Of a stretch of 50,542 nucleotides of DNA, positions 6,913 to 36,432 are shown one piece after another. Below the pieces are notes generated by a model that saw only the letters and a list, made by a program, of their open reading frames with translations, had not been told where the DNA came from and searched no databases. Position numbers and translations under genes: made by a program. Origin of the DNA: Thermoplasmata archaeon (lineage in GTDB: Archaea > Thermoplasmatota > Thermoplasmata > UBA10834); contig JBGOXV010000001.1 in NCBI GenBank assembly GCA_041479325.1, positions 1 through 50,542 of the forward strand. The letters are read 5' to 3'. Each line of letters begins with the position of its first letter. Position 1 is the stretch's first letter.

Positions 6913-9057
6913 CTAGCGGCCTCGACTCTCCTTGAACTTCTTCAGCTCTTCCTCCACCAGCGCCTCGTAATCCTGCCCCTTGGTTAGCGGAGCGACTTCT
7001 GTCTTCCGATCAGACTTGCCCGTGGTCGCATCGAGCTCCTTCGGCTCCTGTTGCCAGACAACGGTCCTTATCGCGAGACCGACCACCAGCAGACCGAATC
7101 CGCCCCACAGAGCGTTCATCATCGGAACGACCTTCATCTGCACCAAGGCCGTCGTGTTGCTCATCCAAGAGAAGTCCAAGTAGAGGTCGTTTGCCAAGGA
7201 CTTGTACACGTAGACCTCGGCGTTGACGACATGGGGCGCTTTAGCACTGTCCTTTTCGGTGAGGTAGAGGTCCGTCAGGACGAGGCCGGAACGGAGTGTG
7301 TGGCCAGAACTCATTATGTCCATCGTGCTCTCCCGAACCGCATTCACGCTTGTCGCTCCCGCGCCTGAGCTCACGTCCCTGGCCGTCAATGCGACCAATC
7401 GCACCGTGTAGTCGCCCACCTTCGCCTCTTGGCCGATAGACATCTCGACAGACGTGGTGCCGCTCACAAGATTCGCAGGGAGGGACTGCATGTTCGTGGA
7501 TATGATGAAACTCACAAGGACCAAGGCCACGCCAAGGTGGATGAGGTGTGGGCTTGCTTTCTGAAGCGTCTTCCTGATGGATCCCACGACCCGCGACTTC
7601 GCCAACTTCACGATCGAGACCGCGAGCGCGACCGCGTAGGCTGGAAGGCTGAATGCGACCAGAGCGTCGATCCAACCTGTCGCAGCGCCGATGACCCCTG
7701 CCACGATCGAAGCCACGATCAAACCCGAGCCAAGAATGAATGCGATCTCCTTGCCGATGAACCTCCAGACCAGGCACAGGCTCATGGTCGTCATCAGTCC
7801 CACGAAGAATATGGACATCTTCTGGTTGAACTCCGCGTAGTTGGATCCCTGCGATGCGTTCATGTTCTTAAACATGAGCAGCAGCATCACAGCGCTGGTG
7901 ACGATGAGCAGGATGACAGTCAACATCATGTTGTTCTTGTCGCTGATGTACTCGCTCAGCTTCTCTGGCTCTGGCTGCTCCTCTGGCCTTTCCATGGACC
8001 TGTAACGTGAATACGCCAGTAGCACGGTCAGGGCGAACAGCGACAACATGAGAGAGAAGATGCCAAGAACAGTGCCATCGTTCTGGAGCAAGTACGCAAG
8101 CCTAGCGACGCCGCTGGTCCCGACCGAGCTCCCGAATCCGTGCACAGATGATGTCCACAGGCTGCCTGCACGGGTGGCGAACGTCGCGAAGACGACCGCG
8201 ACGAAAGAAAGCATGCCCAGCACCGGGGACCAGAGCTTGTACTCCCCCTTCCTTGAATGTCTTATTAGTGTGTGGAGGAAGGCAGTGGCGATTAGCCACG
8301 GCAGTAGCGAGGCGGTCTCGACCGGGTCCCACGCCCAGTATCCACCCCAACCAAGCACGTAATATGCCCAGATGGCACCGATGCCGATGCCCAACGTGAG
8401 GAAGATCCAGCCGAGCCTGGTCCACGGGAGCGATATCTTGAACCAGTTCTGGTCGTCCGAAACAATATAGGCAAGCGCGGCTGCGAAGGCAGCGACGCAG
8501 AAGGCGTATCCGGCGAACACCACTGGAGGATGGATCACCATCTCGGGGGTCTGAAGTATGAGCTTCATTCCGTATCCGTTGGGCCACTGTGACTGAAGAT
8601 AGCTGCCGGTCTTCGCGAAGAGGTTCAGATTCCAAAGCAGGACCATGAAGAGTGATATGATCCCCGCGACGGTCGCCTGGAACACGCCATGGAACTTGGT
8701 GCTGAGGTACTCCCTCTTGGATTCCAAGAAGACCTCGACGATGAGCACCAAGGCCATGAACCATATCCAGAGCAGGAGCGAGCCTTCCGCGCCCGCCCAT
8801 ACGCCGGAGAGCTTGTACACCGCGCTCAGATCTGTGGATGAGTTGGACCAGACGTAATAGTAGTCCATGTTCGATGACATGAAATAGAGAGTCAGCAGCA
8901 ACAGGACCGCGGTGATGGAGACGAACGTGAGGACGGACAGCACGACCGAGACCCCTGTCAAGAGCCGGTCCTTGCGGCTCATAGCGAGCATCCTGGCAAG
9001 CGCAGCGCCGATCGCGGTCAACGTCCCGATGACGATCAGGGAAGCACCAGCGTCCAT
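6913..9057 (-). CDS. ccmF: Cytochrome c-type biogenesis protein CcmF (heme lyase component)
   Basis: Polytopic membrane protein with the W-rich heme-handling motif GWGGYWAWDPVETASLLPWL and flanking His (FLHTL). It also has the N-terminal GAEGSLLLWIW motif and a C-terminal extracytoplasmic CcmF_C-like region. The start was set at ATG 9057, which is preceded by GGGGGGAGG. The track start at 9081 would overlap orfX. Confidence 0.9.
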   Translation of the reverse strand: MDAGASLIVIGTLTAIGAALARMLAMSRKDRLLTGVSVVLSVLTFVSITAVLLLLTLYFMSSNMDYYYVWSNSSTDLSAVYKLSGVWAGAEGSLLLWIWFMALVLIVEVFLESKREYLSTKFHGVFQATVAGIISLFMVLLWNLNLFAKTGSYLQSQWPNGYGMKLILQTPEMVIHPPVVFAGYAFCVAAFAAALAYIVSDDQNWFKISLPWTRLGWIFLTLGIGIGAIWAYYVLGWGGYWAWDPVETASLLPWLIATAFLHTLIRHSRKGEYKLWSPVLGMLSFVAVVFATFATRAGSLWTSSVHGFGSSVGTSGVARLAYLLQNDGTVLGIFSLMLSLFALTVLLAYSRYRSMERPEEQPEPEKLSEYISDKNNMMLTVILLIVTSAVMLLLMFKNMNASQGSNYAEFNQKMSIFFVGLMTTMSLCLVWRFIGKEIAFILGSGLIVASIVAGVIGAATGWIDALVAFSLPAYAVALAVSIVKLAKSRVVGSIRKTLQKASPHLIHLGVALVLVSFIISTNMQSLPANLVSGTTSVEMSIGQEAKVGDYTVRLVALTARDVSSGAGATSVNAVRESTMDIMSSGHTLRSGLVLTDLYLTEKDSAKAPHVVNAEVYVYKSLANDLYLDFSWMSNTTALVQMKVVPMMNALWGGFGLLVVGLAIRTVVWQQEPKELDATTGKSDRKTEVAPLTKGQDYEALVEEELKKFKESRGR

Positions 9058-9061
9058 GTCT

Positions 9062-10858
9062 CTAGCCTCCCCCCGACTCATCGATCCGCTTCATGATGCC
9101 CGCGAGCTCCTTCTTGTATGAGGCGCTGAGATCGCCGTAGACCTTGGCGTCGATCTCCCCCTTCGCATGCGCTCCATCGAGAGCGACGATGGCCTCCATC
9201 AGCTTCACCTTCTCGGCTTCCAGCGGGCTGATGGCCAACGCCTCCGCAGCCTTTCTTTCCGCCATGAGCCTGGTGGCTTTCGCGAGATACTCTTCCCTCA
9301 CTGATTTGTAGGCCTTCTCAGGCAGTCGGCCGTGCTCGAAGTCGTCGTCGATACGCGCGAGAGAAGCCATCACGGAGTCGTATTCACCTGATGACATGGC
9401 ATTAGGCACGCTCGGGTTCCGGGCCGTCGAGGACCTCCGCGAGAGTCTGGTGAGTTCGTTCCGCATACCTTTGAGCTCCTGCTTGAGTCCCACAAGTTCC
9501 GTGTCCGCCTCCGGCTTGCTCATGGCTCCCGATGACCGTTTCTCGCCGACAGTCTCGATCTCCGAGAGGATTTCCTTCTTGCGTTTTATCAGCTCGTTCC
9601 TGCGCGCGCTCACGTCTTCCTCGAGACCCGCCTCGGCGGGATTCGTCTGCTCGTCTGTAATGGATGAACGCGAAACGTTCCTACGCCGCTCCAGTCTTTG
9701 GCGCCTTGCGACCGCGAACCCAGCGAAAAGGCAAGCTACAAGGGCCACACTACCCAGGTACAGCGCCCAAGGAACTTGTGCCTGGGGCGGCGCAATGACT
9801 TCGACGGTGAAGGTCGGGGATCCTCCTGCTATGATGGACATGTTGAAATACAGATTCTTCTCCGGATAGGCGCTCATTGTGCCTGAGGTATCGAGCCTCA
9901 GGTCCACTCCCTGGGCGCTCACATTGTAGCCCTTCACGAGATAGAGCATCAGGACCAGAGAGCCGTCCTGGGAATACGCAAGGGGTTCGCTGATGTTCAA
10001 TATGGCCTTGCCGTTGGTGAAGGTCGGCGTCCACACGTAGGAGATGTGCGAAGTGAATGGCACAGTGAGCGCGGTGTACCGGATTCTTGTCTGGAAGCCT
10101 GTGATCTTCGGATCTCCCCCTTGGGTAGTGTTGCCTCGGAGCGTCAGCCTAACCCTCAACTCAGTGCCGTTCTTCGGAAACTGAACGTAACTGGTTCCGT
10201 TGAAGTTGACGGAGACCCAGTGGATGCCGTCATTGGAAAGCTCGCCTGAGACATTCGTCATGTTCGACCCATACGCGGACAGGTTTGCAGATGTGATGTT
10301 GTAACAGTTGGAGACGGCGATGGCGGCCGAGACCGCCGTTCCTTCTGTCTTGTTCGGTGACAGGTGCAGGCTGCTTGGGGTGTAGGTGGTGTTGACCAAA
10401 GTGCCGTTCAGGAGGAACTCGGCAGCGATCTCCGTGCGATTGCAGGGCGTCCCCTCTCGCGAGTAATCAGACGGGACGTCGACAAAGAAGCTCCCTGCCA
10501 TAGGCCCGGATGATTCCCATCCATGGTTGGCCCCGGACGGGCTCATCAGAGTTAAGTTCCTGGCATCCTTGGGAACCTCGGTGTGCACTCGACTGACATT
10601 GTAGGGCAAGTCGTAGCTGATGATGCGCAACGCGGTGAAATCATGGTCCGACTGCAATCCCGGCACGAGATTCGATTCCCCTTGGATCAGGTAGAACACG
10701 CTCGCGCCAATCGTCGGTCCGTCGCTGCTCGCACCCGCCGCCGAGCTTTGCGGCGAGATTAACAACGGGGCGAACATGGAGACCACGATCACCATCGAGA
10801 GAACCCGTAGCACACTCACTTTGCTCAATGATACCCTCCTTGACAGACTGTCATGCAA
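9062..10858 (-). CDS. Uncharacterised type-I membrane protein embedded in the ccm operon (orfX): signal peptide, sequon-rich ectodomain, 1 TM helix, cytoplasmic coiled-coil tail
   Basis: 598-aa ORF, 15 nt after the ccmE stop and 4 nt before the ccmF start. It has a hydrophobic N-terminus, 16 N-x-S/T sequons in aa 87-341 by my count, and a TM helix at WALYLGSVALVACLFAGFAVA followed by RRQRLERRR. The roughly 214-aa charged tail carries two similar motifs (GRLPEKAYKSVREEYL and GEIDAKVYGDLSASYKKEL). No CxxC or heme motif. Confidence 0.7.
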   Translation of the reverse strand: MHDSLSRRVSLSKVSVLRVLSMVIVVSMFAPLLISPQSSAAGASSDGPTIGASVFYLIQGESNLVPGLQSDHDFTALRIISYDLPYNVSRVHTEVPKDARNLTLMSPSGANHGWESSGPMAGSFFVDVPSDYSREGTPCNRTEIAAEFLLNGTLVNTTYTPSSLHLSPNKTEGTAVSAAIAVSNCYNITSANLSAYGSNMTNVSGELSNDGIHWVSVNFNGTSYVQFPKNGTELRVRLTLRGNTTQGGDPKITGFQTRIRYTALTVPFTSHISYVWTPTFTNGKAILNISEPLAYSQDGSLVLMLYLVKGYNVSAQGVDLRLDTSGTMSAYPEKNLYFNMSIIAGGSPTFTVEVIAPPQAQVPWALYLGSVALVACLFAGFAVARRQRLERRRNVSRSSITDEQTNPAEAGLEEDVSARRNELIKRKKEILSEIETVGEKRSSGAMSKPEADTELVGLKQELKGMRNELTRLSRRSSTARNPSVPNAMSSGEYDSVMASLARIDDDFEHGRLPEKAYKSVREEYLAKATRLMAERKAAEALAISPLEAEKVKLMEAIVALDGAHAKGEIDAKVYGDLSASYKKELAGIMKRIDESGGG

Positions 10859-10873
10859 TCAGATCACTGTCGA

Positions 10874-11260
10874 CTAGTATTTCGACGCGCAACCGACGGT
10901 GATCTCGGTCGCGGTCATGTGCAGGGGTTGCACACCATCGAGCTGTCCTTTCGCCCCGACGGTCTTGCCATTCTCGAATCCCGAGGGCAACGGCCCAGTC
11001 AAGGTCACATTGATGTTGCCGCCCGAAGCGGCGTTCGTATCGAACAGCGTGAAGTTCCTGCTCCCAGGGTCTCCGTTCCAATCAGAGACAACCCCCCTGA
11101 CCTCGATCGGTTTCCCTGAGTAATGTGAGGGGCTGGTGGCAATCTCGCTCACGGAAAGATAGGTCTGCCCCGTCGAGTTCCAACCCCAGAATACGACAAC
11201 CAGGGCAGCCGCGATCACGACGAGGGCAACGATGACCTTCCTCTTGCGACGCCTCGACAT
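10874..11260 (-). CDS. ccmE: Cytochrome c maturation heme chaperone CcmE, CxxxY variant
   Basis: N-terminal anchor (RRRKRKVIVALVVIAAALVVV), OB-fold-like body (IEVRGVV...FTLFD...V.L.G.LP..F..G..V.A.G) and C-terminus GCASKY. Cys replaces the heme-binding His of HxxxY. Confidence 0.85.
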   Translation of the reverse strand: MSRRRKRKVIVALVVIAAALVVVFWGWNSTGQTYLSVSEIATSPSHYSGKPIEVRGVVSDWNGDPGSRNFTLFDTNAASGGNINVTLTGPLPSGFENGKTVGAKGQLDGVQPLHMTATEITVGCASKY

Positions 11261-11300
11261 CGGTCGAGGCGGGTTGGGAAGTTCCGGGATCGGGGGCGGA

Positions 11301-11450
11301 TCACTTGCCGTGCCTCGACACCTCCTCCTTGAGCATCTTGATGTCCCTGTCTATCCTGCGCTGCCTCAGGTACATGTACCCGAGGAAGGAGAATAGGCCG
11401 AGCCAAACGATCGAGTAGGCAACATACAACGCAGTCCACGAATCCGACAT
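11301..11450 (-). CDS. ccmD: CcmD-like small membrane protein (49 aa, not in the ORF track)
   Basis: My own translation of the minus strand gives MSDSWTALYVAYSIVWLGLFSFLGYMYLRQRRIDRDIKMLKEEVSRHGK*. That is one TM helix followed by a basic/charged tail, in the canonical ccmC-ccmD-ccmE position. Its ATG shares one nt with the ccmC stop (TGATG). Confidence 0.6.
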   Translation of the reverse strand: MSDSWTALYVAYSIVWLGLFSFLGYMYLRQRRIDRDIKMLKEEVSRHGK

Positions 11451-12580
11451 CATTCTTCCTCCCCTATCTTGCGCTTGAGTTCTTCCAATTCTTCTTCAGC
11501 TTCCGCAATCTCGACTCTCTTTATTAGCATTGTTATAAACAGGACTGTGAATGCGATGACGGCGATACCTATGGTCATGCCAGCTTGAGGGGAAAGACTG
11601 CCACTGCTGGTCGCAATGACTTGGGGATGGCTGGATTGCATCAGCGGGGCCACTCTCGATGACAGGAAACTCATTGGCACGGTGACGAAGCTGAGGATCC
11701 CATAGACCGCGCTCACCCTCGCCTTCGTGCTCGGCTCGCTAATCGCCGCTCTCAGCGACAGATAGCCGATGTAGACGAGCCACAGGACGAACGTCGTCAC
11801 GAGCTTCATGTCGTCCCAACGCCAATAGACCCCCCACTCCTGCTTCGCCCAGACTGGTCCTGTTGTGATGGCGATTGTGGCGAATACTATCCCAATCTCT
11901 GCAGAAGAGTAGGCCACCCTGTCATACCTATGATCCCTGGTCCTGAGAAAGAGGGCGCTTCCGACCAGCGTTACCCCAAACGAGAGATAGCACGCCCATG
12001 CGGATGGCATGTGGAAGTAGAATATCTTCTGGGCGACAGGGGCGGTCATTAGCCCGAAGCTCCCCACTTGGCCGAACGCAAAATCATTCCCGCTGAAGCT
12101 CGCAAGAGAAAAGCCCGTTACGTTGGAATTCGGGCCGATTTCATGAGCAGTGACAAAACCATTCACCGACAGGTTGGTACCGGCTGTGATTCTCCATCCT
12201 ATGTCTGGGCTGGTTCCTGCGACAACATAGCCCCCTGAGAGTGAGTCGACGTCTATCGGACGCACAGTCCACCATTGCTGGTCTAGATGATTGGTTGCAT
12301 TTGCCTGAAGATATCGCCCGTAATCGCGGAAATCTGCAATAGAGAAAACCACGTGATCTGGCGCGTCAATCCCGTGATTCAGATTTCGGTAGTAGACGGC
12401 GGACACGAATCCTGCGACATGGAGCCTTGATCCTTCCACCGAAGACATGATCTCGCCTGCCGACTTTACGCCCGTCTGGGGCAGAGGAGCGAAGAAGATT
12501 GCCAGATAGACCGTCATCAGGATCAAGACGACTGAGACCACCAAGAGAATCGTTCCCAGCTTCTTCCTGTCCATCCTCAT
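11450..12580 (-). CDS. ccmC: Heme exporter protein CcmC with a roughly 150-aa extracytoplasmic insertion after TM1
   Basis: QKIFYFHMP (conserved His), the WWD motif WGVYWRWDDMKL, and 6 or more TM helices. The start was set at ATG 12580 (MRMDRKK), 1 nt after the ccmB stop. The track start at 12604 would overlap ccmB. Confidence 0.85.
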   Translation of the reverse strand: MRMDRKKLGTILLVVSVVLILMTVYLAIFFAPLPQTGVKSAGEIMSSVEGSRLHVAGFVSAVYYRNLNHGIDAPDHVVFSIADFRDYGRYLQANATNHLDQQWWTVRPIDVDSLSGGYVVAGTSPDIGWRITAGTNLSVNGFVTAHEIGPNSNVTGFSLASFSGNDFAFGQVGSFGLMTAPVAQKIFYFHMPSAWACYLSFGVTLVGSALFLRTRDHRYDRVAYSSAEIGIVFATIAITTGPVWAKQEWGVYWRWDDMKLVTTFVLWLVYIGYLSLRAAISEPSTKARVSAVYGILSFVTVPMSFLSSRVAPLMQSSHPQVIATSSGSLSPQAGMTIGIAVIAFTVLFITMLIKRVEIAEAEEELEELKRKIGEEE

Positions 12581-12581
12581 G

Positions 12582-13262
12582 TCATCCCTCAAGCACGAAA
12601 TCAAACGTCAGATATCCGAGCACGGCGAAGATGGCGGCGAAGGCCGCAACGGATTCGATCTGCTGAACAGAGTCGCCGATACCCCCTGCCATCGCGTTCT
12701 TGGTGGCAGTTACGGAGGGCACGATCACGCTGAATGCGATCAACGGGATCAGCAGGATGGGCAGCAAAACCTCGCGAGCGCGGGTGTTGACGGATATCGC
12801 TGCGACGAGGGTGCCGACCAGGACAATTGTGACGCTCCCGAGCAAGGCAAGCCCCACGATCGCGAGCGTCTGCCCGCTGTAGTCGAATGAGAAGAACAAC
12901 CCGAAGAAAGCTATCGACAACAAGTCGACGAAGAAGACGACGAAAAGACTGGACAGCGCCTTTCCAAGATACAACTCGCTTCTGTCCACAGGCGCGAGCA
13001 AGAGGCCATCGAGCGTCTCTCGGTCCTTCTCCTTGGCGAACGAAGTGTACATCCCAAGAATCGCAGCGAACGAGAAGCATATCCAAAGGGCGGAAGCTGC
13101 CAGCTCTGGGAGTCCCACCACCCCGGAGCTCACGGCGTTTGAGAACGCGAACCTGAAAGCAAGGACGATCAGGAGCGAGAACAGGAACATCGCACTCAGC
13201 ATCTCCTTTGACCTGAGCTCGACCTTCAGGTCCTTCGCCGCGATAATCAGGGCGGCCCTCAC
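12582..13262 (-). CDS. ccmB: Heme exporter permease CcmB
   Basis: A 226-aa polytopic protein. The N-terminus IIAAKDLKVELRSKEMLSAMFLFSLLIVLAFRFAF is typical of CcmB. It has a 4-nt overlap with ccmA. Confidence 0.85.
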   Translation of the reverse strand: MRAALIIAAKDLKVELRSKEMLSAMFLFSLLIVLAFRFAFSNAVSSGVVGLPELAASALWICFSFAAILGMYTSFAKEKDRETLDGLLLAPVDRSELYLGKALSSLFVVFFVDLLSIAFFGLFFSFDYSGQTLAIVGLALLGSVTIVLVGTLVAAISVNTRAREVLLPILLIPLIAFSVIVPSVTATKNAMAGGIGDSVQQIESVAAFAAIFAVLGYLTFDFVLEG

Positions 13263-13972
13263 ACGATCCCTCCCTCGGAGGAGGCTCGGTAGCCCGCTTC
13301 GAGCTCGCCCCTGGTTATGGACGCTCGGTCGAATGACCGTTCGATCTTCCCATGGACAAGCACCTCGGCTCGATCGGCCAGCGATGATATCCTCTGGATA
13401 TCATGCGTCACGATCAGAATGGAGCAACCCCTCGATCTCTCCTCCGTCAGTATCTGTGAGAGCACCTCGTTCCCCTTCTCGTCCAGGGAGGAGAAGGGCT
13501 CGTCGAGAAGTAGCACCTTGGGAGAATGGAGGATGGCCCTTGCTATCGCGAGCCTCTGGCGCATCCCCTTGGAGAATACTGCGACGCGGTCGTTCATACG
13601 ATGGGACAGCCCCACGCGCTGAAGGAGCGCCTTGCCCGCAGCTTCGAAGTCCTTTCCAGGCAGGCCGTACAATGACCAGAAGAACCTGAGGTTCTCGAGT
13701 GCCGTGAGGTCGTCGTACGTGTAGGTCGAGTGCCCCACCACCCCGATCGATTTCCTTGACATCACGGGATCGTCGTAAACGCTCTTGCCGTCAAGGAACA
13801 CATCGCCCCGGGTAGGCTCAGCGAGAGTCGACATAAGGCGCAGAAGGGTGGTCTTCCCCGCGCCATTGGGTCCCATCAAGGCGACAATCTCGCCATCCTC
13901 GATCTTCAGATCGAGGCCGTCCAGGACTGTGCGTCGTCCGAATCGCTTTGTCACGGTCCTGGCATCTATCAC
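13259..13972 (-). CDS. ccmA: Heme exporter ATP-binding protein CcmA (ABC ATPase)
   Basis: Walker A GPNGAGKTT, signature-like FSKGMRQRLAIA, and Walker B LLLDEP. It is the first gene of the ccm operon, with GGGGAGG upstream of the ATG. Confidence 0.85.
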   Translation of the reverse strand: MIDARTVTKRFGRRTVLDGLDLKIEDGEIVALMGPNGAGKTTLLRLMSTLAEPTRGDVFLDGKSVYDDPVMSRKSIGVVGHSTYTYDDLTALENLRFFWSLYGLPGKDFEAAGKALLQRVGLSHRMNDRVAVFSKGMRQRLAIARAILHSPKVLLLDEPFSSLDEKGNEVLSQILTEERSRGCSILIVTHDIQRISSLADRAEVLVHGKIERSFDRASITRGELEAGYRASSEGGIV

Positions 13973-14086
13973 CGATTGCCTCCCCTGGATAGACCCTGAG
14001 AATCTAACTGCCGGTATATCATCCCTTTCAATGCCATGCGAATAGAGCCGAGACCCAGGAGCGGGGGGCGACAGCTAGGGACATTG

Positions 14087-14092
14087 AAAAAA
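14087..14092 (-). terminator. Oligo-T tract downstream of the multiheme cytochrome gene
   Basis: On the minus strand a T6 run within a T-rich stretch (CTTTCTTTCATTTTTTC) lies about 25 nt after the stop at 14115. Archaeal terminators are typically oligo-T. Confidence 0.35.
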
Positions 14093-14114
14093 TGAAAGAA
14101 AGAGGGAAAGTGTT

Positions 14115-15869
14115 TCACTGTTCCTTTTCCTTAGGTGTCTCAGACGCTTTCGTCTCAGTTGCCTTCGTCTCAGGTGCCTTCGGTTCCTGTCTCCTCCGCA
14201 TGAGGAGCAATCCGATGACCGACGCCACTACGATGACGATGATCATTGCCGCGATCAGACTCAAGGCTTCAGTCGACAGTCCTCCAGCAGCCTTCATTGC
14301 GATCGATTGGGGGCTCACCGTGTTCGTGATCTCGTTTCCGTTGCTATCGACGGCCGTGACGTACACATAGTATGTGCCCGCCTTGAGATTCGTTATGGTA
14401 ACGGTGCTGGTCGACTTGCCATCCAGTTGCAGCCTCCATGCGCTGTCGGTGATGTTCGCCTTCGAAGAGCTCAGGACGTATATCCTGTACTTCGAGAAGT
14501 CCGAAGCATTGCTAGGAGTCCAGCTCACCGTGATCTGTCCGTGTCCATCATCTGTCACCTGTATGCCGGTGATCTTGTCCGGCGGCGTCAGGTTCGCTAT
14601 GGTGCTGTTCGAGCGTGCCATCGAATCGACCAACAGCTCATCTGCCAGGCCCGGGTTGTGGTTGCCCTGGCTCATGTCCAGGTCCACGGAGTCGAGGTTG
14701 AAGCTGGCGATCTTGTACTGGGTCATCCAGTCGCTGAGGTTTTCCCCAGTCCTGTTCCCTGCCATCTGCTTGATCGCTGCTATTGCATCGTTCAGGAGCG
14801 GCTTGCTTATCGCGAGCTGTCCGTCCGTCTTGGTGGCAACGGAATCGATCACCTGCTGCGCCTGACTTGCGTTCGTCAGGTCGGGCAATTGTCCTGTCCC
14901 ATTGTGACACGTCAGGCAGGCCGTTGCGTTGGGCAAGAAGGTGTGGTTGGGCAGCCCCGCGTTCTCAAATCCCAAATGGCAGTTGAAGCAGGACACATCG
15001 ACCATGTAGCTCGTTGTTGATCGGTCAATGCCGAATCCTGCGGTGTTGTTCCTCATCTCAGCCATTGGATGATGTGGCTTCGCGCTGGGCTCACTGGCGT
15101 ATGTCGCCCCGTACGCATTGTGGCATTTCTGGCATATCTCAGTCCTGTCGACCCTGAGCTGTGCGAATCCGCTGGGACCCATGCTGTGCGGATCATGGCA
15201 TGTCGGGCATCCAATCTCCCAGGTCAGGGGCGCGTCCTCGCTCCCGATCCTGTAGCTCGTCCTGAAGGATCCCCCTTCGATCAGCTTCATAGCCATCCAT
15301 GATTCGTGGCAGTTGGCACACTGGACATTGTTCTTGATGTAGTCCGGAAGTCCTACTTCCGCGTGGCCGGACATGTTCCACTCGTTGTATGTCGGGTGGT
15401 GAGTCCCGCCAACGGTGCCAGTGTGGCATGAACCGCAAAGGCTGGAGTTCAAGACGAGGCCGATCGTCTGCAGCTTCTGGCCGGACGATGCTACCTCGTG
15501 CAAGCTTCCTGGTCCGTGGCACACCTGACAGCTCACGTTAGTCAGGTAGCTCGGCGTTCTGCTCGTGACGTTGAACCCCGTGGCGGGGTATATGCCAGGA
15601 TGTCCTCCTGCCCCTACCACATGGCACGGCATGCACCTTGTAGCTCCACCAATCACATTCAGATATGCACTGGCGTGCAGTGTCTGGTTGAAGGTGGCGT
15701 TTAAGTCAGCATGGCAGCCGATTCGTGCACAGGTGTCGTTCGGCACATAGCTAGCTGTCGTGGGCGGAGGGCCCGCTTGGTTGTTAGGCAACTGGAGCAT
15801 TATAAAAATCAAGACACCTAGAGCGCACAGGCCAAATGCCAGTGCGATTTTCCATGTCCTTATGCTCAA
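14115..15869 (-). CDS. Membrane-anchored multiheme c-type cytochrome (8 CxxCH plus 1 CX4CH) with a C-terminal FN3-like domain and TM anchor
   Basis: Heme motifs counted in the translation: CMPCH, CQVCH, CGSCH, CANCH, CPTCH, CQKCH, CFNCH and CLTCH, plus CARIGCH. It has an N-terminal hydrophobic signal and many N-x-S/T sequons. The FN3-like segment is ITGIQVTDDGHGQITVSWTP...YRIYV...GTYYVYVTAVDSNGNE. A C-terminal TM helix is followed by a basic/ETK-repeat tail. It has a TTG start with AAGGAGGG immediately upstream. Confidence 0.9.
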   Translation of the reverse strand: MSIRTWKIALAFGLCALGVLIFIMLQLPNNQAGPPPTTASYVPNDTCARIGCHADLNATFNQTLHASAYLNVIGGATRCMPCHVVGAGGHPGIYPATGFNVTSRTPSYLTNVSCQVCHGPGSLHEVASSGQKLQTIGLVLNSSLCGSCHTGTVGGTHHPTYNEWNMSGHAEVGLPDYIKNNVQCANCHESWMAMKLIEGGSFRTSYRIGSEDAPLTWEIGCPTCHDPHSMGPSGFAQLRVDRTEICQKCHNAYGATYASEPSAKPHHPMAEMRNNTAGFGIDRSTTSYMVDVSCFNCHLGFENAGLPNHTFLPNATACLTCHNGTGQLPDLTNASQAQQVIDSVATKTDGQLAISKPLLNDAIAAIKQMAGNRTGENLSDWMTQYKIASFNLDSVDLDMSQGNHNPGLADELLVDSMARSNSTIANLTPPDKITGIQVTDDGHGQITVSWTPSNASDFSKYRIYVLSSSKANITDSAWRLQLDGKSTSTVTITNLKAGTYYVYVTAVDSNGNEITNTVSPQSIAMKAAGGLSTEALSLIAAMIIVIVVASVIGLLLMRRRQEPKAPETKATETKASETPKEKEQ

Positions 15870-16146
15870 CCCTCCTTACCATTTCCCCGGTGGATACCGA
15901 GGCTTGAGACCTAAAACTATTACAGCGTTATATACTTGACGACTCATCATCCGTAAAGCGCGTACGGACAATGTGCGAATATGTTGGATCGGCTCACCGC
16001 CAGAAATGGAAGGTCTGAGGCAGACCCGAATCCGTCCTGTGCGAAGTGTAAGTCGAGTGTGGAGAAAGGATAATAACGGTGCAAACAACTCGGTGGGCCG
16101 CGCAGGAATAGCACCGATTTCAGAGGGAAGTTGGGGGAAGAAAGAC

Positions 16147-17085
16147 ATGCATCCGAGAGGAAGAATTGCATTACTGACATTCATCTGCTTGTCGATCGTG
16201 ACCGTCACGCTCGCGCCGTCGCTCTTGGCCACACCAGGCGGTGTCGCGAGCTCGAACCAGCTGTACGACTGTGGAGGATCCTGCCACAACAAACCGAGCA
16301 CTGCATCGATCACAATGTGGGCTTCCGCGCACCAGGTCGCACCTGGCGGACTAGTGGACGTCATCGTCAACGTTTCGGGAGGGCAGGCAGTCAACATCCT
16401 CGGCGTGATGATCGTGTCGGTGGCAAGCCCGGTACAGGCGAGCAACCCGACGGCACCAGAGAATGGGTGGGTAATCAGATCGGACCCAGTCGGAGGCACT
16501 TTCAACTACTATGAGAACACCACCTACTCGGGGTCTACATCAATGCGTTGGCAGCTGGACGCGCCCCTGGTCATGGGTTCCTACACACTCTATGCAAGGA
16601 TGATGCACGGCGGCGGAGCTGCCTATGCAGCAGACTACTCAGCTGGCGTCAGTTTCCTTGTCGGAACCATAAGCACTACCGGCCCGACCGTGCTCGTGAC
16701 TGCTCCAGCAACTGGAGCCGAGGTGAAAGGCGTCGTTCCCATCGAGACGACCGTCCTGGGCAACGCATCGCTCAGGTATGTCGTACTGAAGCTGGACGGG
16801 GTGGAGATCGCGAACAAGACCACTGGGCCGTTCACTTGGTCCCTCGAATCCACCATCTACAAAGATGGCGTGCACACGCTGAACGTGACAGCGGTGGATG
16901 TCAACGGGAAGGTCGGGTATCACGAGATAACCATCACCATCAACAATGCGGGGTCCAGTAGCGGGCTGCTTGCTTGGGTGTGGACAATGGCCGCAGGAAC
17001 CGTGGCCATTCTTGCATGGATTGGAGTCCTGATGGTCGTCGCGCTTATGGTGCGCCGGAGACACGTCGAAGGGGGGATGAAGTAA
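16147..17085 (+). CDS. Secreted, C-terminally anchored protein with a single CX3CH motif and an Ig-like domain
   Basis: The start was set at ATG 16147 (MHPRGRIALLTFICLSIVTV, signal-like), preceded by GGGGG. It has a CGGSCH motif near the mature N-terminus and an Ig-like repeat (VLVTAPATGAEVKGVVPIETTV...VHTLNVTAVDVNGKVGYHEITITINN). A C-terminal TM helix is followed by RRRH. Confidence 0.6.
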   Translation: MHPRGRIALLTFICLSIVTVTLAPSLLATPGGVASSNQLYDCGGSCHNKPSTASITMWASAHQVAPGGLVDVIVNVSGGQAVNILGVMIVSVASPVQASNPTAPENGWVIRSDPVGGTFNYYENTTYSGSTSMRWQLDAPLVMGSYTLYARMMHGGGAAYAADYSAGVSFLVGTISTTGPTVLVTAPATGAEVKGVVPIETTVLGNASLRYVVLKLDGVEIANKTTGPFTWSLESTIYKDGVHTLNVTAVDVNGKVGYHEITITINNAGSSSGLLAWVWTMAAGTVAILAWIGVLMVVALMVRRRHVEGGMK

Positions 17086-17769
17086 ATGGTTTCGATGGCT
17101 GCTCTGCATGCGCTCACTGCAGAACTGCACGGCGGCATGCTGACTCTCGCGTTCATAGCCATAATGGTAGTGGCACTGTCTCAGATTGCCGTGCGCCTGA
17201 AGAATCGTATGCCCAAGAAGCTCGTGAAGGCGGCGATCCAGGTAAGGGGGTACGCGGAGGCGACGGGATACTTCGCCGCAATCGCAGGCCTGATAGGGCT
17301 GCTACTTTCTGCTTACACGGGAATGTACGCATGGCCGACAGATGTCCTCCTCAACGACCCGGTCATCCAGAACAAGATCCTGCTGACGGCTTTCTCGACC
17401 GCTTTCTGGATCGGAGTCGTGGTCATCAGGACGAGGTTCGGAAGGGGGCTATGGACCTGTCCTGCGATGGCGATGTTATACACTGTGCTCGCGATCGCCG
17501 GATTCGGAATGGTCGGTCTTACTGGGTCCCTTGGCGCACATCTCACTCAGGGAGGCAGCATCCTGGATCCCTTCTGGAGTACCCTGCACATCGATGTCAC
17601 CAAGACCATGAGCCTTGTACCTGTACTCGCGGCGATCGTTGCGATGGCGAGCGTGGTGGCCTTCATCATATCCTTGGCGATCGCGAGGAGATACGAGCTT
17701 TTCGGCGTCCGGCTTGGAGCGGAGACCTGCGAGAGGTACTTCAAGTGGGACGAGCCGAGGATTCCGTGA
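17086..17769 (+). CDS. Five-TM integral membrane protein with conserved-looking His residues (possibly DUF2231/cytochrome-b-like)
   Basis: Its ATG directly abuts the upstream stop (TAAATG). I read five hydrophobic helices. His residues sit in LHALTAELHGG and GSLGAHLTQGG. The functional call is inference only. Confidence 0.55.
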   Translation: MVSMAALHALTAELHGGMLTLAFIAIMVVALSQIAVRLKNRMPKKLVKAAIQVRGYAEATGYFAAIAGLIGLLLSAYTGMYAWPTDVLLNDPVIQNKILLTAFSTAFWIGVVVIRTRFGRGLWTCPAMAMLYTVLAIAGFGMVGLTGSLGAHLTQGGSILDPFWSTLHIDVTKTMSLVPVLAAIVAMASVVAFIISLAIARRYELFGVRLGAETCERYFKWDEPRIP

Positions 17770-17926: not shown

Positions 17927-18136
17927 ATGGCCATGCGCTTATCAGGGACAAACTGCTGGATCACCACGAAGTGCGCCAAAGACAGTGACGAATACGCCAC
18001 ACACGTGTTCTGCATGAGCAGGCTAAGGGGGCTCAAGTGCCCTCGAGAGGGAAGCGCGGGGACCAAGCCCTACGAGCTGAGCCTTGAGTGCTTCAAAGCC
18101 GTCCAGGTCCCCAAGAAGAAGACGAGGAAGCCTTGA
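17927..18136 (+). CDS. Small Cys-rich basic protein (hypothetical)
   Basis: The 69-aa ORF from ATG 17927 (the track uses GTG 17918) has 5 Cys and a His (NCWITTKC...HVFC...LKCP...LEC), a KKKTRKP tail, and strongly G/C-biased third positions. Confidence 0.4.
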   Translation: MAMRLSGTNCWITTKCAKDSDEYATHVFCMSRLRGLKCPREGSAGTKPYELSLECFKAVQVPKKKTRKP

Positions 18137-18185
18137 ACAATGGACTCACAAAGGATTTCTACCCGCGAACTCTACCTGGGCTAGC

Positions 18186-19154
18186 ATGCCGAACCTGAAC
18201 GCCGCGGTCCTGGGAGCTCCCGAGTATGCAAAAGGGATCGGAAAGTCGTCGACCGCTTCCGACATCACTTTCTACGACGTGAAACAGGGCGAGGTGACCG
18301 TCTCCCTCGTCGAGCCCACGAAGTACCCCGAGAAACTCGCCCCTCTATTCTACTCGACATCGCTCGCGGACGTCGCCATCGTCGTCGTCGACGAGTTGAA
18401 CCCGGCTTTCGGTGAGACCGTGATCATGCTCGACTGCGTGGGCGTGAAGAAGGGGTACTTGGTCCTCAGGAACTACATCGCGCCCGAGCAGATCGCCCCC
18501 TTTACGAAGGGCACCTCCCTGGAGGGATACACAGTGGTGGACGATGATCCCCTCACGCTGAGGGAGACACTACTCTCTGAGGCCAGGAAGTTGATCCCGG
18601 AGGAGCCGAACGCGAAGAATCATGCAGGCTCTGTGCCTGTAGACCACTACTTCGATGTGAAGGGCGTCGGGACTGTCGTCCTGGGATGCGTCGCCGAGGG
18701 GGCGATAAGAAAACACGATTCCGTCAAGGTCCTGCCTTCGGACAAGCAGGCGGAGATAAGATCCATCCAGAAGCACGATGACGATTTCGATTGGGCAGTC
18801 AAAGGGGACCGGGTCGGGTTCGCGCTCAAGGGGGTCTCGATCGAGGAACTCGACCGTGGGACCGTCCTGACGAATAACGGAGCCATCATCTCCCGGAGGA
18901 ACATAACCGGACGCGCAGAGCTGGTCAAGTACTGGACGAAACCCCTGGCCGTGGGTATGGTCGTGCACCTCGGACATTGGATGCAGTTCGAGCCTGCCAG
19001 GATAGAATCCGTGGACGCAGGCAGTGACTGGAAAGCGCCCGTGCTCACGCTCTCTCTCCAGAAGGACCTCGTGTACATCCCAGGCTCGAAGGCCGTGGTC
19101 ACATATCTTGAGGGATCGAAGCTCCGCATAGCTGGGACCATCACACTACAGTGA
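18186..19154 (+). CDS. EF-Tu/SelB-family three-domain protein with degenerate GTPase motifs
   Basis: The start was set at MPNLNAAVLG. A domain-II beta-barrel signature (VPVDHYFDVKGVGTVVLGCVAEGAIRKHDSVKVLP...IRSIQKHDDDFDWAVKGDRVGFALKGV) and a domain III are present. The G1, G3 and G4 positions read GAPEYAKGIGKSS, VEPTKY and LRNY instead of GHVDHGKS, DxPGH and NKxD. Confidence 0.7.
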   Translation: MPNLNAAVLGAPEYAKGIGKSSTASDITFYDVKQGEVTVSLVEPTKYPEKLAPLFYSTSLADVAIVVVDELNPAFGETVIMLDCVGVKKGYLVLRNYIAPEQIAPFTKGTSLEGYTVVDDDPLTLRETLLSEARKLIPEEPNAKNHAGSVPVDHYFDVKGVGTVVLGCVAEGAIRKHDSVKVLPSDKQAEIRSIQKHDDDFDWAVKGDRVGFALKGVSIEELDRGTVLTNNGAIISRRNITGRAELVKYWTKPLAVGMVVHLGHWMQFEPARIESVDAGSDWKAPVLTLSLQKDLVYIPGSKAVVTYLEGSKLRIAGTITLQ

Positions 19155-19379
19155 TACCTCGATTTGTCGCGAGATTCATTCTCGACCGGGTATCGTCCGT
19201 ATTTATTCTGAAGGCACGAACAAACGAGCGAACCCATGGGGCCGTCGGGTGAATGACAGCAACGCATGTCCAGCTCGCAATGTTGAGTGTCCTACACGAA
19301 ATCGATTTATAGCGTACAGTCGTTCAATTCTCGTCCATCTCTGTTCCTGAACGGAACAGGAGAACTGGGAGGAACGAGT

Positions 19380-22300
19380 GTGGGTGAGCCTGCGAATCAT
19401 CGACTCAGGGCTGTGCTGTGTGCCTCAGTGGCGCTCGTCATGGTTCTGACGGTTCTGTCATCGATGCAATCGTCATTCGGGAATAACGAGAAGAGAGGTG
19501 CGGAGAACCTCGCGAACGGGTCCCGGACGTTCAACGTCGGCGCAGTTGATTACATGACAAGCGTAGCGACTTTGAATCCGTTCGTGTCCACAATGTCCGC
19601 GGAGTACGAGACCATATCCCCTTGTTACAGCACGCTACTGACCTATGACGTGAATGCCAACCTCATTGGTGACCTGGCTACATCGTGGAGTCTCGCGCCG
19701 GATAGTCTCACCTGGAACTTCAAGTTGGCTCAGAACGCTCACTTCATTGATCCTGCATCGCCTCTGTCGACGGCCCACCAGGTCACAGCCACGGATCTCA
19801 TGTGGACCCTCTGGGAAGTGAACAACGATACCGGCAACCACCTTTCATCCTACCTCCGAATCGCCGGCGCGGGCGTCATTGCCAAGATGTGGACCGGGAC
19901 TGACCAGTGGGATCTGTATGTCAAAACGAAGACCCCCTATGCTCCGTTTATTGGCGCATTGGCAAAGATCCCAATCGTGCCCGAGTACATCTGGGGCCAT
20001 CTGGTGGGGAGGACACCTCTGACTTATGCAAACCTCCCGCCCATAGGGTCCGGACCGTTCTACTACGGCTCGACGGGGTTGCCGGCTACCGTGGGCATCC
20101 TGAAACGGAATCCGCAGTGGTTCCAGGAGGCAAACAGGGGTTGGCAGATTCACATCGACACGCTTCAGTTCAAGAACGAAGTCAGCGCTGACACAGCCTG
20201 GGCTGATCTGACGGCGAGCCCTCCCCTGATAGATACCTATCTCAATGTCGCTACGGACCAGTTCATTGCACATCTGGTCGACGCCACAACCCCCGGAGTT
20301 ATCGGATGGGCTCAGAGCACGGGTTTCGTCTACGAGTATCAGCTCAACCAACTTGACCCCGCCCGACGCATCTTGTATGAGAACGCGGGGCTGATGAGGA
20401 AGGGCGGGACGAGCAACCCGCTCCTGCTTGACCCGACCGTCAAGCTCGCGATGGCCATGTGCGTGGACAAGCAGGCATTCATCGACCAAGTCCTCAGGGG
20501 ATTCGGCTCCGTTGCGGATTCGCTCGTGCCAGACTGCAACCCGTGGCACTACACCTGTCCGAACCCCGTACAGTTCAACCCGACTGCTGCAAGGACCCTG
20601 TTGAACAACGCTGGCTGGGCCTACGACTCGACCGGCGCATACAATCCAAACGGACCCGCTCCTCTGTATAAGAAGGGAGCTACGAATAACACGGTCTATC
20701 AACCACTCTCCTTCCGCTTGATGAGTCTTAACACGGCCGCGGAGTGGGCAGCTGGCAGCAATCTGCTCGCCCAGTGGGCCGCACTCGGCGGCGTCCAGCT
20801 GAACGTCACTATAATCTGTGTGTGCGTGGCGAACTCGCTCTGGTACGCGGGCGACTATGATACATGGCTGTGGGACTGGGTGTTCACACCGACCTCTGAC
20901 CCGAGCACGGACTGCCTGTTGGTGGACACGACGATGGAAATCGGTTGGTGGAGCGGCTCCTATTGGAGCAACGCGACCTATGACGCGCTGTACAACGCGT
21001 CGCTCGTCGCGACCGACCCGACGACCCGCCGCCAGCTGACGAATCAGATGCAAGCGATGCTCTACGAGGACCACAACGACCAGCTCATCGCGTACGCCAA
21101 GTCCCTCTATGCCGCGAACACCTACTACTGGAATGGGTCGAGCTACGGTGACTGGGCCGCGCACTGGGCGCTGATGCCGGACCAGGGATATCCATGGCTC
21201 TACATGCAATTGTCTCCGACTGACAACCACGCCCCCACCGTGACGACGGTTTATTCGAGCGTCATCGGATTCGAAGGCACGTCGTTTTCTCTATCGGGCT
21301 CGGCTGTCGACGATTCGTCCACGCTGAAGTATCAATGGTACTGGGGAGATGGATCGGTATCGGGGTGGCAGGCGAGCGCGAGCATGTCGCACACATACTC
21401 CACACCTGGATACTTCACGGCCTACCTAGCTGCTCAGGAACAGGGGACGGCCGACGGGTTCATAGGATGGAACCAGACGACGGTAGTTGTTGTTAGCAAC
21501 AACCTGCCACCTGTGTTCGGCAATCCACCGATAATCATGAGCCCTTCGACGGGGATCAACACCGCTACCGTGGTCACCTTCACCGGGCAGGCGGCCGACC
21601 CGGAGGGTGACCCTATCTACTACTATTGGGACTTCGGGGACACCTTCGGGGCCACCGGTCCAGTAGTGACTCACCAGTTCACTTCGGTCGGCAACGGCCC
21701 GTATACGGTGAAGTTGACCATAACCGACAACATACCAGGAGCCCCGCCGCAGGTGGCGACGAAGTTGGTGTCTGTGGCGCTCAACCAAGCGCCGCAGCTG
21801 TCACTCCCGAGCGCCAAGACTGTCCTAATACACACGCTGACGACTTTCACGGCCTCTGCATCAGACCAGGACGGCGACCCAATGAGGTTCACATGGGTTT
21901 GGGGCGACGGGAACACTTTGGTGACTACGACGCCTTCCGCAACGCACTCGTATGCGACGCAGGGCGCGAAGACCCTGGTCCTGTATGCTGACGATCGCAC
22001 GGGACTGACGGGCCACAACGTGAGCGCAACGGAAGCAGTCAATGTGATCAATGGCCCACCGACGCCGCCGTTCGGTGTGACGCTCTCTGCGACCCCGCTC
22101 TCGGTCTGGGCCGGACAGGTCGTGACCTTCACGGGATCCGCTCAGGACCCCGGTGGTGACGCGATGTACTTCAACTACACCTTCGGCGACGGGACCTACA
22201 CTATGGCTGCCAACGGTCCCACGAATCCGAACCAGATCGTGATCAACCAGACCACGCACGCCTACGCGGCCGCGGGTACGATGACGGCGTACATGACCGC

Positions 22301-23144: not shown

Positions 23145-23429
23145 TGACCATCAGTTCGATTCCGTCAACATGCATCTTGACGAGAGCATGCGGGTTCAAC
23201 CATCATCTCCTGCGCCCAGCTGTGAGAAGGTCTGAGGAGGAGATTACCGCATCCCTGATCAGCATTTCGAGATCGCATCTCGGGGGGGCTCGAACGGAAC
23301 GCCTCCGATAGTGTCAACCGACGAGGGCCGCCCGAAATCGGTGCGCCTGAGAATGACGGGGACGAGGCCGCATATAAAAGAGAATGAACACTTTTCGGCG
23401 TAGTCAGTATCATTCTAGAAGAAGAACAG

Positions 23430-23440
23430 TTGATATATGA
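23430..23440 (+). promoter_or_regulatory. TATA-like box upstream of the 23472 gene
   Basis: TTGATATATGA lies about 35 nt upstream of the GTG start, followed by a GGGGGG Shine-Dalgarno-like run. The element is conserved in the duplicated copy at 26258-26266. Confidence 0.4.
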
Positions 23441-23471
23441 TAAGTGAGATGCCTGACGGGGGGAAAGTTTA

Positions 23472-26051: not shown

Positions 26052-26257
26052 AGAACCCGTAACGCGTCGAGCCGGGAGATTCCCTCATGGGAGAGGGGGT
26101 CGGCCCGGATCCAAACCCTTTCTTATTCCATATTTCTATCAGCTACGAGATCGAGTCAACGAGAGATGGACACTTTCCCAGCGAAAGCTGAATGAATTGA
26201 AAGTAGGACGAATGAACACTTTTCGGCGTAGTTGGCGTCCGTCATGGAGAAACGCAG

Positions 26258-26266
26258 TTGATATAG
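26258..26266 (+). promoter_or_regulatory. TATA-like box upstream of the 26297 gene (duplicated copy)
   Basis: TTGATATAG lies about 35 nt upstream of the ATG, followed by AGGGGGA. It aligns with the 23430-23440 element. Confidence 0.4.
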
Positions 26267-26296
26267 CGCAACTGACATCCCTAATAGGGGGAATGA

Positions 26297-36422: not shown

Positions 36423-36432
36423 TTCTCTTGCG

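Follow-up and report, generated by a model that had tools for sequence, protein, structure and literature searches.

OcwA (TherJR_2595; PDB 6I5B), from Thermincola potens JR, a Gram-positive bacterium, is a nonaheme terminal reductase of the outer cell wall that exchanges electrons with electrodes, reduces iron oxide, binds flavin mononucleotide, and slowly reduces nitrite and hydroxylamine (PMC6703420). Its hemes make up a branched chain that carries, at its opposite ends, two open hemes exposed to solvent: hemes 1, 3, 4, 6, 7, and 8 are bis-His coordinated and heme 9 has His-Met ligation, while hemes 2 and 5 are five-coordinate and lie under His-His motifs at residues 281/282 and 380/381 (PMC6703420). 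A β-sheet domain (residues 75–156) is shared with MccA (PMC6703420). Both OcwA and OmhA have been called “very poorly represented” in sequence databases (PMC9250108). The present analysis concerns a homolog encoded by a Thermoplasmata archaeon, on a stretch of 50,542 nucleotides (assembly GCA_041479325.1, contig JBGOXV010000001.1, positions 1 to 50,542) that we refer to as the window. The gene (14115–15869, minus strand) encodes a nonaheme c-type cytochrome of 584 residues with a TTG start codon, which sequence, profile, and structural comparisons place in the OcwA family and which is predicted to be displayed on the outer face of the cytoplasmic membrane.

The OcwA-type heme core

The nine heme attachment sites fall within a compact domain of residues 41–330 (14880–15749, minus strand), which also holds the distal histidines H65, H124, H169, H228, and H309 and two His-His motifs at residues 157/158 and 266/267. 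A motif scan places one CX4CH site, CARIGCH, at residue 47 (15711–15731, minus strand) and eight CxxCH sites at residues 79, 114, 145, 184, 221, 246, 294, and 318; 18 of the 19 cysteines lie inside these motifs, the last (C15) being in an N-terminal helix. The array is not a product of chance, since 20,000 composition shuffles yielded a mean of only 0.02 CxxCH per sequence and a maximum of 2. Aligned with its homologs and with OcwA, CARIGCH stands opposite the heme-1 CxxCH of the remoter homologs and the CKTCH of OcwA, the longer spacing being a two-residue insertion that is also present in the ten closest homolog clusters and in the homolog P0025. Sites of both the CX3CH and the CX4CH type are genuine heme c sites in the Desulfovibrio cytochromes c3, and elsewhere in the present family both spacings are found at heme 9.

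OcwA is the best sequence match in the PDB (6i5b), with an E-value of 1.7e-18 that becomes 1.2e-47 when a profile of 26 family members is used. When the family profile was aligned with full OcwA (P0280) by hhalign, the match had a probability of 99.94 and an E-value of 2.7e-37 over 363 columns, covering cytochrome residues 38–442 at only 30% identity, and Foldseek with an AlphaFold2 (AF2) model likewise ranked 6i5b first (E 4.2e-9). In the hhalign alignment the nine heme motifs pair one-to-one and in the same order as those of OcwA; H65, H124, H169, H228, H309, and H404 each face a histidine of OcwA; and HH157/158 and HH266/267 align with OcwA HH281/282 and HH380/381 (residues 252/253 and 351/352 of the crystallised chain, whose numbering is offset by 29 residues). 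The nine heme sites and the same six histidines are invariant among 26 homologs with identities down to 29%, and H157/158 and H266/267 are conserved in at least 90% of them. The β-sheet domain of OcwA has no counterpart in the archaeal protein, the hhalign alignment showing about 85 extra residues in OcwA after H65 and before heme 2. On this sequence-level comparison the cytochrome is a member of the OcwA family, the missing β-sheet domain being accessory and outside the heme core.

The two proteins thus have in common nine heme c sites, six distal histidines, two His-His motifs, a C-terminal three-helix bundle with a GxHN motif, and an extracytoplasmic location, which for the archaeal protein is a prediction made here. 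They differ in more than their low identity. The cytochrome is without the β-sheet domain (chain residues 46–127) and without a 53-residue insert (chain residues 197–249), whereas it has gained a fibronectin type III (FN3) domain, a C-terminal transmembrane (TM) anchor, and a cytoplasmic tail; its heme 1 is of the CX4CH type and it is rich in glycosylation sequons. In addition, the host here is an archaeon with a single membrane, in contrast to a Gram-positive bacterium with a thick wall.

Other multiheme families are more distant. The second-best match (profile E 7.4e-32; Foldseek E 4.7e-8) is OmhA from Carboxydothermus ferrireducens (PDB 6QVM), an undecaheme protein of cell-surface extracellular electron transfer that has an OcwA-like core and similar C-terminal helices; however, OmhA carries eleven hemes and is described as an S-layer cytochrome in its PDB title, while the protein described here has nine hemes, an FN3 domain, and a TM helix. 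In its last hemes and its helical bundle the archaeal cytochrome is similar to the NrfA fold (PF02335; PDB profile E 1e-10 to 1e-11 for NrfA and ONR), but this similarity is confined to the C-terminal third, and nine hemes stand against the five or eight of those enzymes. Identity with NrfA itself was rejected: the cytochrome has no CxxCK motif, the equivalent heme 5 being attached at CANCH, it has nine heme sites, and no nrf partner genes are found in the window. The MccA octaheme sulfite reductases were set aside as well, the cysteine positions allowing no CX15CH motif and the PDB profile match (E 2.4e-5) extending over just 32 residues, as was the HAO family, with its best PDB match, 6h5l, at E 6.5e-6 versus 1.2e-47 for OcwA and with nine hemes counted here. 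The match to MtrC/OmcA is limited to a short Pfam hit (Mtrc-MtrF_II-IV, residues 70–127) and PDB profile E-values of 2e-4 or worse. These Shewanella proteins have the same proposed job, that of an electron outlet at the cell surface, but they are decahemes of an unrelated fold, with a staggered-cross arrangement and two β-barrel domains, and they need an outer-membrane porin–cytochrome complex. The cytochromes of anaerobic methanotrophic archaea (ANME), Methanoperedens, Ferroglobus, and Geoglobus are likewise outward-facing, often have C-terminal anchors or β-sandwich domains, and are matured by archaeal Ccm systems (PMC4429474); they belong to other lineages and mostly to other cytochrome families. 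A preliminary description, made from the nucleotide sequence alone, had counted eight CxxCH motifs and one CARIGCH in the 584-residue product and had pointed to NrfA, octaheme, and archaeal multiheme cytochromes as families for comparison. The count is borne out by the motif scan, and the comparison finds the strongest profile match to be OcwA, with the NrfA and octaheme types far weaker.

The NCBI gene call (P0001; 561 residues, 100% identical) begins at M24 and thus leaves out the stretch 15801–15869 (minus strand), and with it an N-terminal hydrophobic helix. The TTG start at 15869 is better supported, because the related proteins P0002, P0003, and P0005 begin at the same residue, the JGI call for the cytochrome of a related locus (L087) is also 584 residues long, and AAGGAGGG adjoins the TTG codon.

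Predicted membrane topology, maturation genes, and a candidate electron input

Outside the heme core, the predicted protein is built of an N-terminal hydrophobic helix, a helical bundle, an FN3 domain, a TM helix, and a charged tail. The AF2 model was computed without cofactors and has predicted local distance difference test (pLDDT) values below 50 for residues 26–175, being reliable only in the bundle, the FN3 domain, and the TM helix. The bundle (residues 334–426; 14592–14870, minus strand) is of the NrfA/OcwA type and comprises helices at 334–369, 378–398, and 406–426, with block-mean pLDDT of about 78–94. It contains SQGNHNPGLADELL (residues 400–413) and the distal ligand H404, which lies in the motif GNHNPGLA, and the C-terminal part of Pfam PF02335 (Cytochrom_C552) matches residues 290–428; several generic multiheme Pfam models match the cytochrome as well. 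The FN3 domain (residues 432–525; 14295–14576, minus strand) is matched by PF00041 over residues 432–513 (E 8.7e-10) and by Foldseek with TM-scores of 0.7–0.78; its strands, at 434–525, have block-mean pLDDT mostly of about 82–93, declining toward 75 at the C-terminal end, and the domain probably acts as a stalk or spacer. It is followed by a C-terminal TM helix (residues 533–558; 14196–14273, minus strand), modeled as a helix by AF2 and conserved in archaeal homologs, in which the hydrophobic segment 538–556 has a hydropathy of 3.19. The sequence MRRRQ then leads into the cytoplasmic tail (residues 559–584; 14118–14195, minus strand), which is basic, rich in Lys, Glu, Pro, and Thr, and of low pLDDT.

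At the other end, the N-terminal hydrophobic helix (residues 8–26; 15792–15848, minus strand; hydropathy 2.52) is preceded by R4 and K7 and spans residues 3–25 in the AF2 model. Its h-region is long, at about 20 residues, and the best candidate cleavage site, NQA|G, has Asn at position -3. The segment that follows, LMLQLPxNEAGPPPTTAxYV, is unusually conserved among the homologs, this linker being more conserved than is usual behind signal peptides. The helix may be an uncleaved anchor rather than a cleaved Sec signal peptide. Inspection of the cytochrome by eye revealed no lipobox, no class III (pilin-like) signal, and no PGF-CTERM.

The protein has 18 N-x-S/T sequons, all within residues 44–472, compared with 6.3 ± 2.2 in shuffled sequences, and their density, at 3.08 per 100 residues, exceeds the 0–0.7 of the window's cytoplasmic proteins by a factor of 4–10; the cytochrome is probably N-glycosylated. 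Positive charges flank the two hydrophobic helices on their outer sides along the chain (R4 and K7 N-terminally, RRR at 558–560 C-terminally), leaving about 510 sequon-rich residues between them. Ccm system I, for which genes lie next to the cytochrome gene, attaches heme on the outer face of the membrane. Because the positive flanks are expected to be cytoplasmic, the sequons are enriched between them, and Ccm attaches heme on the outer face, the heme domain is predicted to lie outside the cytoplasmic membrane; that the protein both belongs to the OcwA family and has this location is, taken together, very probable. The preliminary description had likewise placed the hemes outside the membrane, citing many sequons and an N-terminal signal, and had listed a helical region, an FN3-like domain, a TM helix, and a short basic tail. 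The last four are all recovered by Pfam, AF2, Foldseek, and hydropathy, and the sequon excess and the predicted location also stand; as to the signal, the hydrophobic helix is present, but it may be the uncleaved anchor just described.

The maturation genes form a ccm operon (6913–13972, minus strand) defined by Pfam and NCBIfam matches: ccmA (13259–13972), ccmB (12582–13262), ccmC (11450–12604), a ccmD-like open reading frame (ORF; 11301–11453), ccmE (10874–11260), a gene for a 598-residue membrane protein (9062–10858), and ccmF (6913–9081), all on the minus strand. The product of ccmE ends in VGCASKY and thus carries a CxxxY motif. With a score of 31.1 bits, the 50-residue product of the ccmD-like ORF passes the cutoff (24) of NCBIfam TIGR04391 (CcmD_alt_fam). 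CcmD, CcmH, and CcmI have been stated to be universally absent from archaeal genomes (PMC9084895, 2022 eLife), to which this operon, judged by that match, seems to be an exception. The same 50-residue ORF is seen in the related loci L081, L083, and L082. Within the 384-residue CcmC, the family match covers only residues ~190–364, and it is preceded by an N-terminal extension of ~190 residues, which comprises a single TM helix and a domain that is probably outside. The protein encoded between ccmE and ccmF has no Pfam or NCBIfam match; it consists of an N-terminal signal or TM helix, an ectodomain with 17 sequons, a TM helix at 365–383, and a cytoplasmic, coiled-coil-like tail, and it keeps the same position in L001, L081, and L083. 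It may be an extra Ccm component.

The stop codon of the cytochrome gene is separated from ccmA by 142 nucleotides. Within this interval is a pyrimidine-rich tract (14086–14109, minus strand) ending in a T6 run (14087–14092), which lies 23–28 nucleotides past the stop codon, is the sole T/A homopolymer of six or more in the window, and is a likely archaeal oligo-T terminator of the cytochrome gene; T5 and T4 runs occupy the equivalent place in L081 and L082. About 40 nucleotides upstream of ccmA is the motif GAAAGGGATGATATAC (GAAAGGnCTGAtATAC; 14014–14029, minus strand), found at the same position in L081, L083, and L001 and likely to be the TFB recognition element (BRE)/TATA promoter of the ccm operon. 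Upstream of the cytochrome gene (15927–15937, minus strand), the divergent intergenic region contains a putative TATA-like element, AAGTATATAAC. These signals fit a cytochrome gene that is a separate transcription unit with its own terminator, next to a ccm operon with its own promoter. The arrangement, in which the cytochrome gene is followed by ccmABCDE, the gene for the 598-residue protein, and ccmF and is accompanied by a divergent gene pair, is repeated in L001, L081, and L083, and the 6-kb contig L087 shows it too, up to ccmC, where its sequence stops; the cytochromes of these four loci are 52–81% identical to the one described here. The preliminary description had noted both the adjoining ccm operon and an oligo-T terminator belonging to the cytochrome gene itself. 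The genes for CcmA, CcmB, CcmC, CcmE, and CcmF are indeed on the same strand, with their clustering conserved in related loci, and the T6 run is real and the only one of its kind in the window.

The first gene of the divergent pair (16147–17085, plus strand) encodes a putative monoheme cytochrome of 312 residues with a signal peptide, a CGGSCH (CX3CH) motif, a Big_7 immunoglobulin-like domain, and a C-terminal TM helix. It is translationally coupled to the second (17086–17769, plus strand), which encodes a 227-residue protein with five TM helices from an uncharacterised family. A CXnCH motif (n = 3, rarely 5) is a conserved feature of the full-length proteins among 39 homologs of the CX3CH protein; no PDB relative of the CX3CH/Big_7 protein was found. 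In the five-TM protein, H8, E13, and H15 are invariant and H152 is nearly so, all of them close to the outer ends predicted for helices 1 and 4, and there is a conserved cytoplasmic C-terminal motif; its AF2 model has a pLDDT of 84.7, and a weak DUF2231 match is found by Pfam in 4 of 23 members. Barring chance matches in non-coding frames and cytoplasmic enzymes, heme-c-type motifs in the window are restricted to the nonaheme cytochrome and the CX3CH protein. The CX3CH protein is a candidate electron relay and the five-TM protein a candidate membrane electron-entry subunit. The pair is widespread in Thermoplasmata, and in one Methanomassiliicoccales metagenome-assembled genome (MAG), at a locus without the cytochrome, the first Cys of the motif has been lost (ATSCH).

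Homologs and host

Homologs of the cytochrome form 53 clusters among 5.8 billion sequences. When the heme domain was run by HMMER exhaustively against 1.84 billion representatives, there were 684 matches at E-values up to 1e-3, of which 162 were at up to 1e-10 and 11 at up to 1e-30. As far as these searches indicate, the family is small and its archaeal clade narrow. Almost every full-length homolog from archaea has nine heme sites together with two HH motifs, 10–19 sequons, and a C-terminal TM helix. Three of the homologs (P0008, P0009, and P0038) end in PEF-CTERM-like tails (e.g., IPEFSSMLLPILGMIVLFGLMCVERRLRNR) in place of the TM helix and long charged tail, which suggests archaeosortase-type anchoring in some lineages. 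Bacterial relatives, at 25–31% identity, come from Verrucomicrobiota, Planctomycetota, and other phyla; one of the bacterial homologs, P0053, lacks an anchor and contains four sequons. Outside the clade, the closest relatives (P0186, P0187, P0189, P0191, and P0194) are proteins of 973–1622 residues that combine an OcwA-like module with 15–26 CxxCH motifs and up to 39 sequons. A further homolog, P0052 (L082, 8001–9758), is of the archaeal type and 30% identical, with an FN3 domain and a C-terminal TM helix, yet it has CASCK at heme 5, resembling the lysine ligation of NrfA, its heme 4 motif is apparently CX7CH, and neither HH motif is present. Its gene adjoins ccm genes, a gene for a 336-residue multiheme cytochrome, and one for a classical cytochrome b. 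P0052 may represent a catalytic branch of the OcwA-type family.

Among genome records in which a homolog occurs, the nearest are those of “Euryarchaeota archaeon RBG_19FT_COMBO_56_21” (52% identity), of a MAG from an uncultured member of the Thermoplasmata, and of RBG_13_57_23, and the named homologs of the neighboring five-TM protein are all from Thermoplasmata or Thermoplasmatota. The genus COMBO-56-21 has been assigned to Ca. Gimiplasmatales (PMC11264602). Because of these nearest records and of the taxa in which the five-TM protein occurs, the host is probably a Thermoplasmata archaeon related to Ca. Gimiplasmatales. The gene content of the window, which takes in its contig in full, is archaeal, with genes for ribosomal protein S2, NFACT, FtsZ, pyruvate:ferredoxin oxidoreductase (POR), and MttB. 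The last of these (48962–50419, plus strand) is a member of the MttB family (trimethylamine methyltransferase-like) and is in line with the mttB genes reported from relatives of Methanomassiliicoccales among the non-methanogenic Thermoplasmata.

Several other genes of the window deserve mention. Next to the five-TM gene is one for a 356-residue protein (18084–19154, plus strand) that matches only EF-Tu domain 2, with weak SelB/EF-1alpha similarity and apparently no match to a GTPase domain; it is conserved beside the five-TM gene in L081. Three consecutive large ORFs follow (19287–28906, plus strand), encoding proteins of 1285 residues (SBP_bac_5 and five PKD domains), 859 residues, and 869 residues, the latter two without a Pfam match; they are probably surface proteins. 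L081 is without this stretch, and there the aconitase and POR genes adjoin the EF-Tu-like gene. About 20 kb from the cytochrome gene, a DtxR-type iron-dependent repressor fused to FeoA is encoded ahead of FeoB, for ferrous iron uptake (36067–39021, plus strand).

Proposed role, alternatives, and significance

By analogy with OcwA, whose homology and reported activities are the grounds for this reading, the cytochrome is probably an outward-facing terminal oxidoreductase for extracellular or soluble acceptors, a proposal that we hold with moderate confidence. Under this model, the C-terminal TM helix would hold the heme domain on the outer face of the membrane by way of the FN3 stalk, possibly together with the N-terminal helix, and covalent attachment of the hemes would be the work of the neighboring Ccm system I (CcmABCD, E, and F, with a CxxxY-type CcmE). 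As in OcwA, the chain of nine hemes would be branched, a tetraheme module of the c554-like kind coming before a pentaheme module of the NrfA-like kind; six hemes would be bis-His coordinated, whereas at hemes 2 and 5 the distal site would be open, with a His-His motif as its cap. A membrane partner would supply electrons from respiratory or fermentative metabolism, and the cytochrome would pass them to extracellular acceptors such as Fe(III) minerals, humic substances, or partner cells; like OcwA, it could also pass them to soluble acceptors at the two open hemes. The N-terminal helix, if retained, would hold heme 1, which lies 20 residues further on, at the membrane surface and so provide a natural point of electron entry. 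The sequence, the domain layout, the family membership, and the conservation of the heme ligands and of the gene cluster are established here, while the topology, the glycosylation, which way electrons flow, what accepts them, and what donates them are all inferred in this model. The P0052 locus, which has a cytochrome b and a second multiheme cytochrome, suggests the type of partner to be expected and fits a role of the family in membrane electron transfer.

Several observations weigh against this proposal. The His-Met ligand of OcwA heme 9 is not mapped onto the archaeal protein, the candidates M289 and M272 being partly conserved or displaced in the alignment, and the AF2 model of the heme domain is poor, so that the ligand geometry rests on the alignment with OcwA. 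On the side of electron input, the 50-kb window encodes nothing recognisable as a quinol dehydrogenase (NapC/NrfH/CymA, NrfD, or cytochrome b); for the five-TM protein, Foldseek found nothing in the PDB below E 0.1, and a profile search of PDB sequences gave no match, so that a heme-b or quinol-site role for it is hypothetical. Moreover, the CX3CH and five-TM genes also occur as a pair in Thermoplasmata loci with neither the cytochrome nor ccm within 10 kb (L084, 9014–10702; L085, 2022–3626), and because of this the tie of the pair to the cytochrome may be one of synteny only. C-terminal anchors often keep archaeal c-type cytochromes below the S-layer (PMC4429474). Should the host have an S-layer, the protein may lie underneath, less than fully exposed, and so be kept from insoluble acceptors.

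The alternative with the most in its favor, though in our judgment an unlikely one, is that the protein, facing outward, serves mainly to reduce or detoxify some soluble compound (nitrite, hydroxylamine, NO, or a sulfur oxyanion) at open heme 2, open heme 5, or both, and not to pass electrons to solids. The NrfA-like character of the C-terminal half (PF02335; NrfA/ONR profile E 1e-10 to 1e-11) and the conservation of both His-His-capped pockets of OcwA are in keeping with such a function, as is the CASCK motif, of the NrfA lysine-ligated type, at heme 5 of the archaeal homolog P0052; OcwA itself reduces nitrite and turns over hydroxylamine (PMC6703420). However, the nitrite turnover of OcwA is only ~1 per minute (PMC6703420). 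Furthermore, the cytochrome has no CxxCK, the window contains no nrfH, nrfBCD, or nap/nir genes, and neither the Arg/Tyr/His triad nor the Ca site of NrfA is identifiable by alignment.

It is less probable again that electrons flow in the opposite sense, with Fe(II), reduced humics, a mineral acting like a cathode, or, by direct interspecies electron transfer (DIET), a syntrophic partner as their source, to drive a reductive metabolism such as the Wood–Ljungdahl pathway (WLP) reported for Gimiplasmatales. The electrochemistry of OcwA is reversible, between +100 and -450 mV (PMC6703420), and relatives in the lineage have been described as possible methylotrophic acetogens with Hdr/Mvh and the WLP (PMC11264602), to which can be added the MttB homolog encoded in the window. 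Sequence sets no direction of flow, however, and the window shows neither a Cyc2-type or other iron-oxidation gene nor a hydrogenase-independent uptake module. We give slightly less credence still to the idea that the cytochrome is an intermediate relay in a pseudo-periplasm beneath the S-layer, carrying electrons from a membrane complex to some other terminal protein. Retention beneath the S-layer by a C-terminal anchor, common among archaeal c-type cytochromes (PMC4429474), would suit such a relay, and the closest out-of-clade relatives include the very large cytochromes with 15–26 heme motifs and an OcwA-like module; but OcwA is the terminal component in its own organism, and the window contains no second multiheme cytochrome, the CX3CH protein being the only other plausible product with a heme motif. 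Finally, the notion that the ORF is in decay or without function, or that its motifs cluster by chance, found no support and can for practical purposes be dismissed, given the 53 homolog clusters, the nine heme-type sites kept by full-length archaeal members with occasional CX3–4CH variants, the chance expectation of 0.02 CxxCH, and the conserved gene neighborhood.

The proposal of an outward-facing terminal oxidoreductase bears on what is known of cytochromes c in this part of the archaeal tree. Surveys describe Thermoplasmatota as all but devoid of c-type cytochromes: a comparative study found no PF00034 or PF01322 cytochromes c in any genome of the phylum (PMC9287336), and an earlier survey recorded cytochromes c in only two Thermoplasmatales single-cell genomes (PMC4429474). 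A literature search, which covered few subscription journals, found no earlier description of OcwA-type cytochromes in Thermoplasmata. The cytochrome is thus a member of a known family, found in what is a new domain of life for the OcwA type and having a different mode of anchoring and a trimmed core. A broader scenario, which we put forward tentatively and consider rather doubtful, is that uncultured Thermoplasmata related to Gimiplasmatales and Methanomassiliicoccales, for which the usual description is one of fermenters or methylotrophic acetogens free of cytochromes, respire extracellular acceptors or exchange electrons with partners through a minimal single-membrane conduit, in which a glycosylated cytochrome pinned to the membrane at both ends would be fed by the histidine-bearing five-TM and CXnCH immunoglobulin-domain proteins as a module not recognised before, and that the cytochrome was acquired together with a bacterial-style ccmABCDEF system that includes CcmD and the 598-residue component.

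As seen from this locus and ~50 related metagenome clusters, a clade of sediment and aquifer Thermoplasmata carries a full maturation system along with a predicted outward-facing homolog of a proven extracellular reductase. With nine hemes in ~290 residues, its very compact OcwA core would be a simple model for electron exit in a cell that has neither an outer membrane nor a thick wall, and the cytochrome offers a natural test of whether open hemes capped by His-His motifs serve electron transfer to solids or catalysis. If the cytochrome is functional, iron or humic respiration, or interspecies electron exchange, would be added to the predicted metabolism of this clade of Thermoplasmata.

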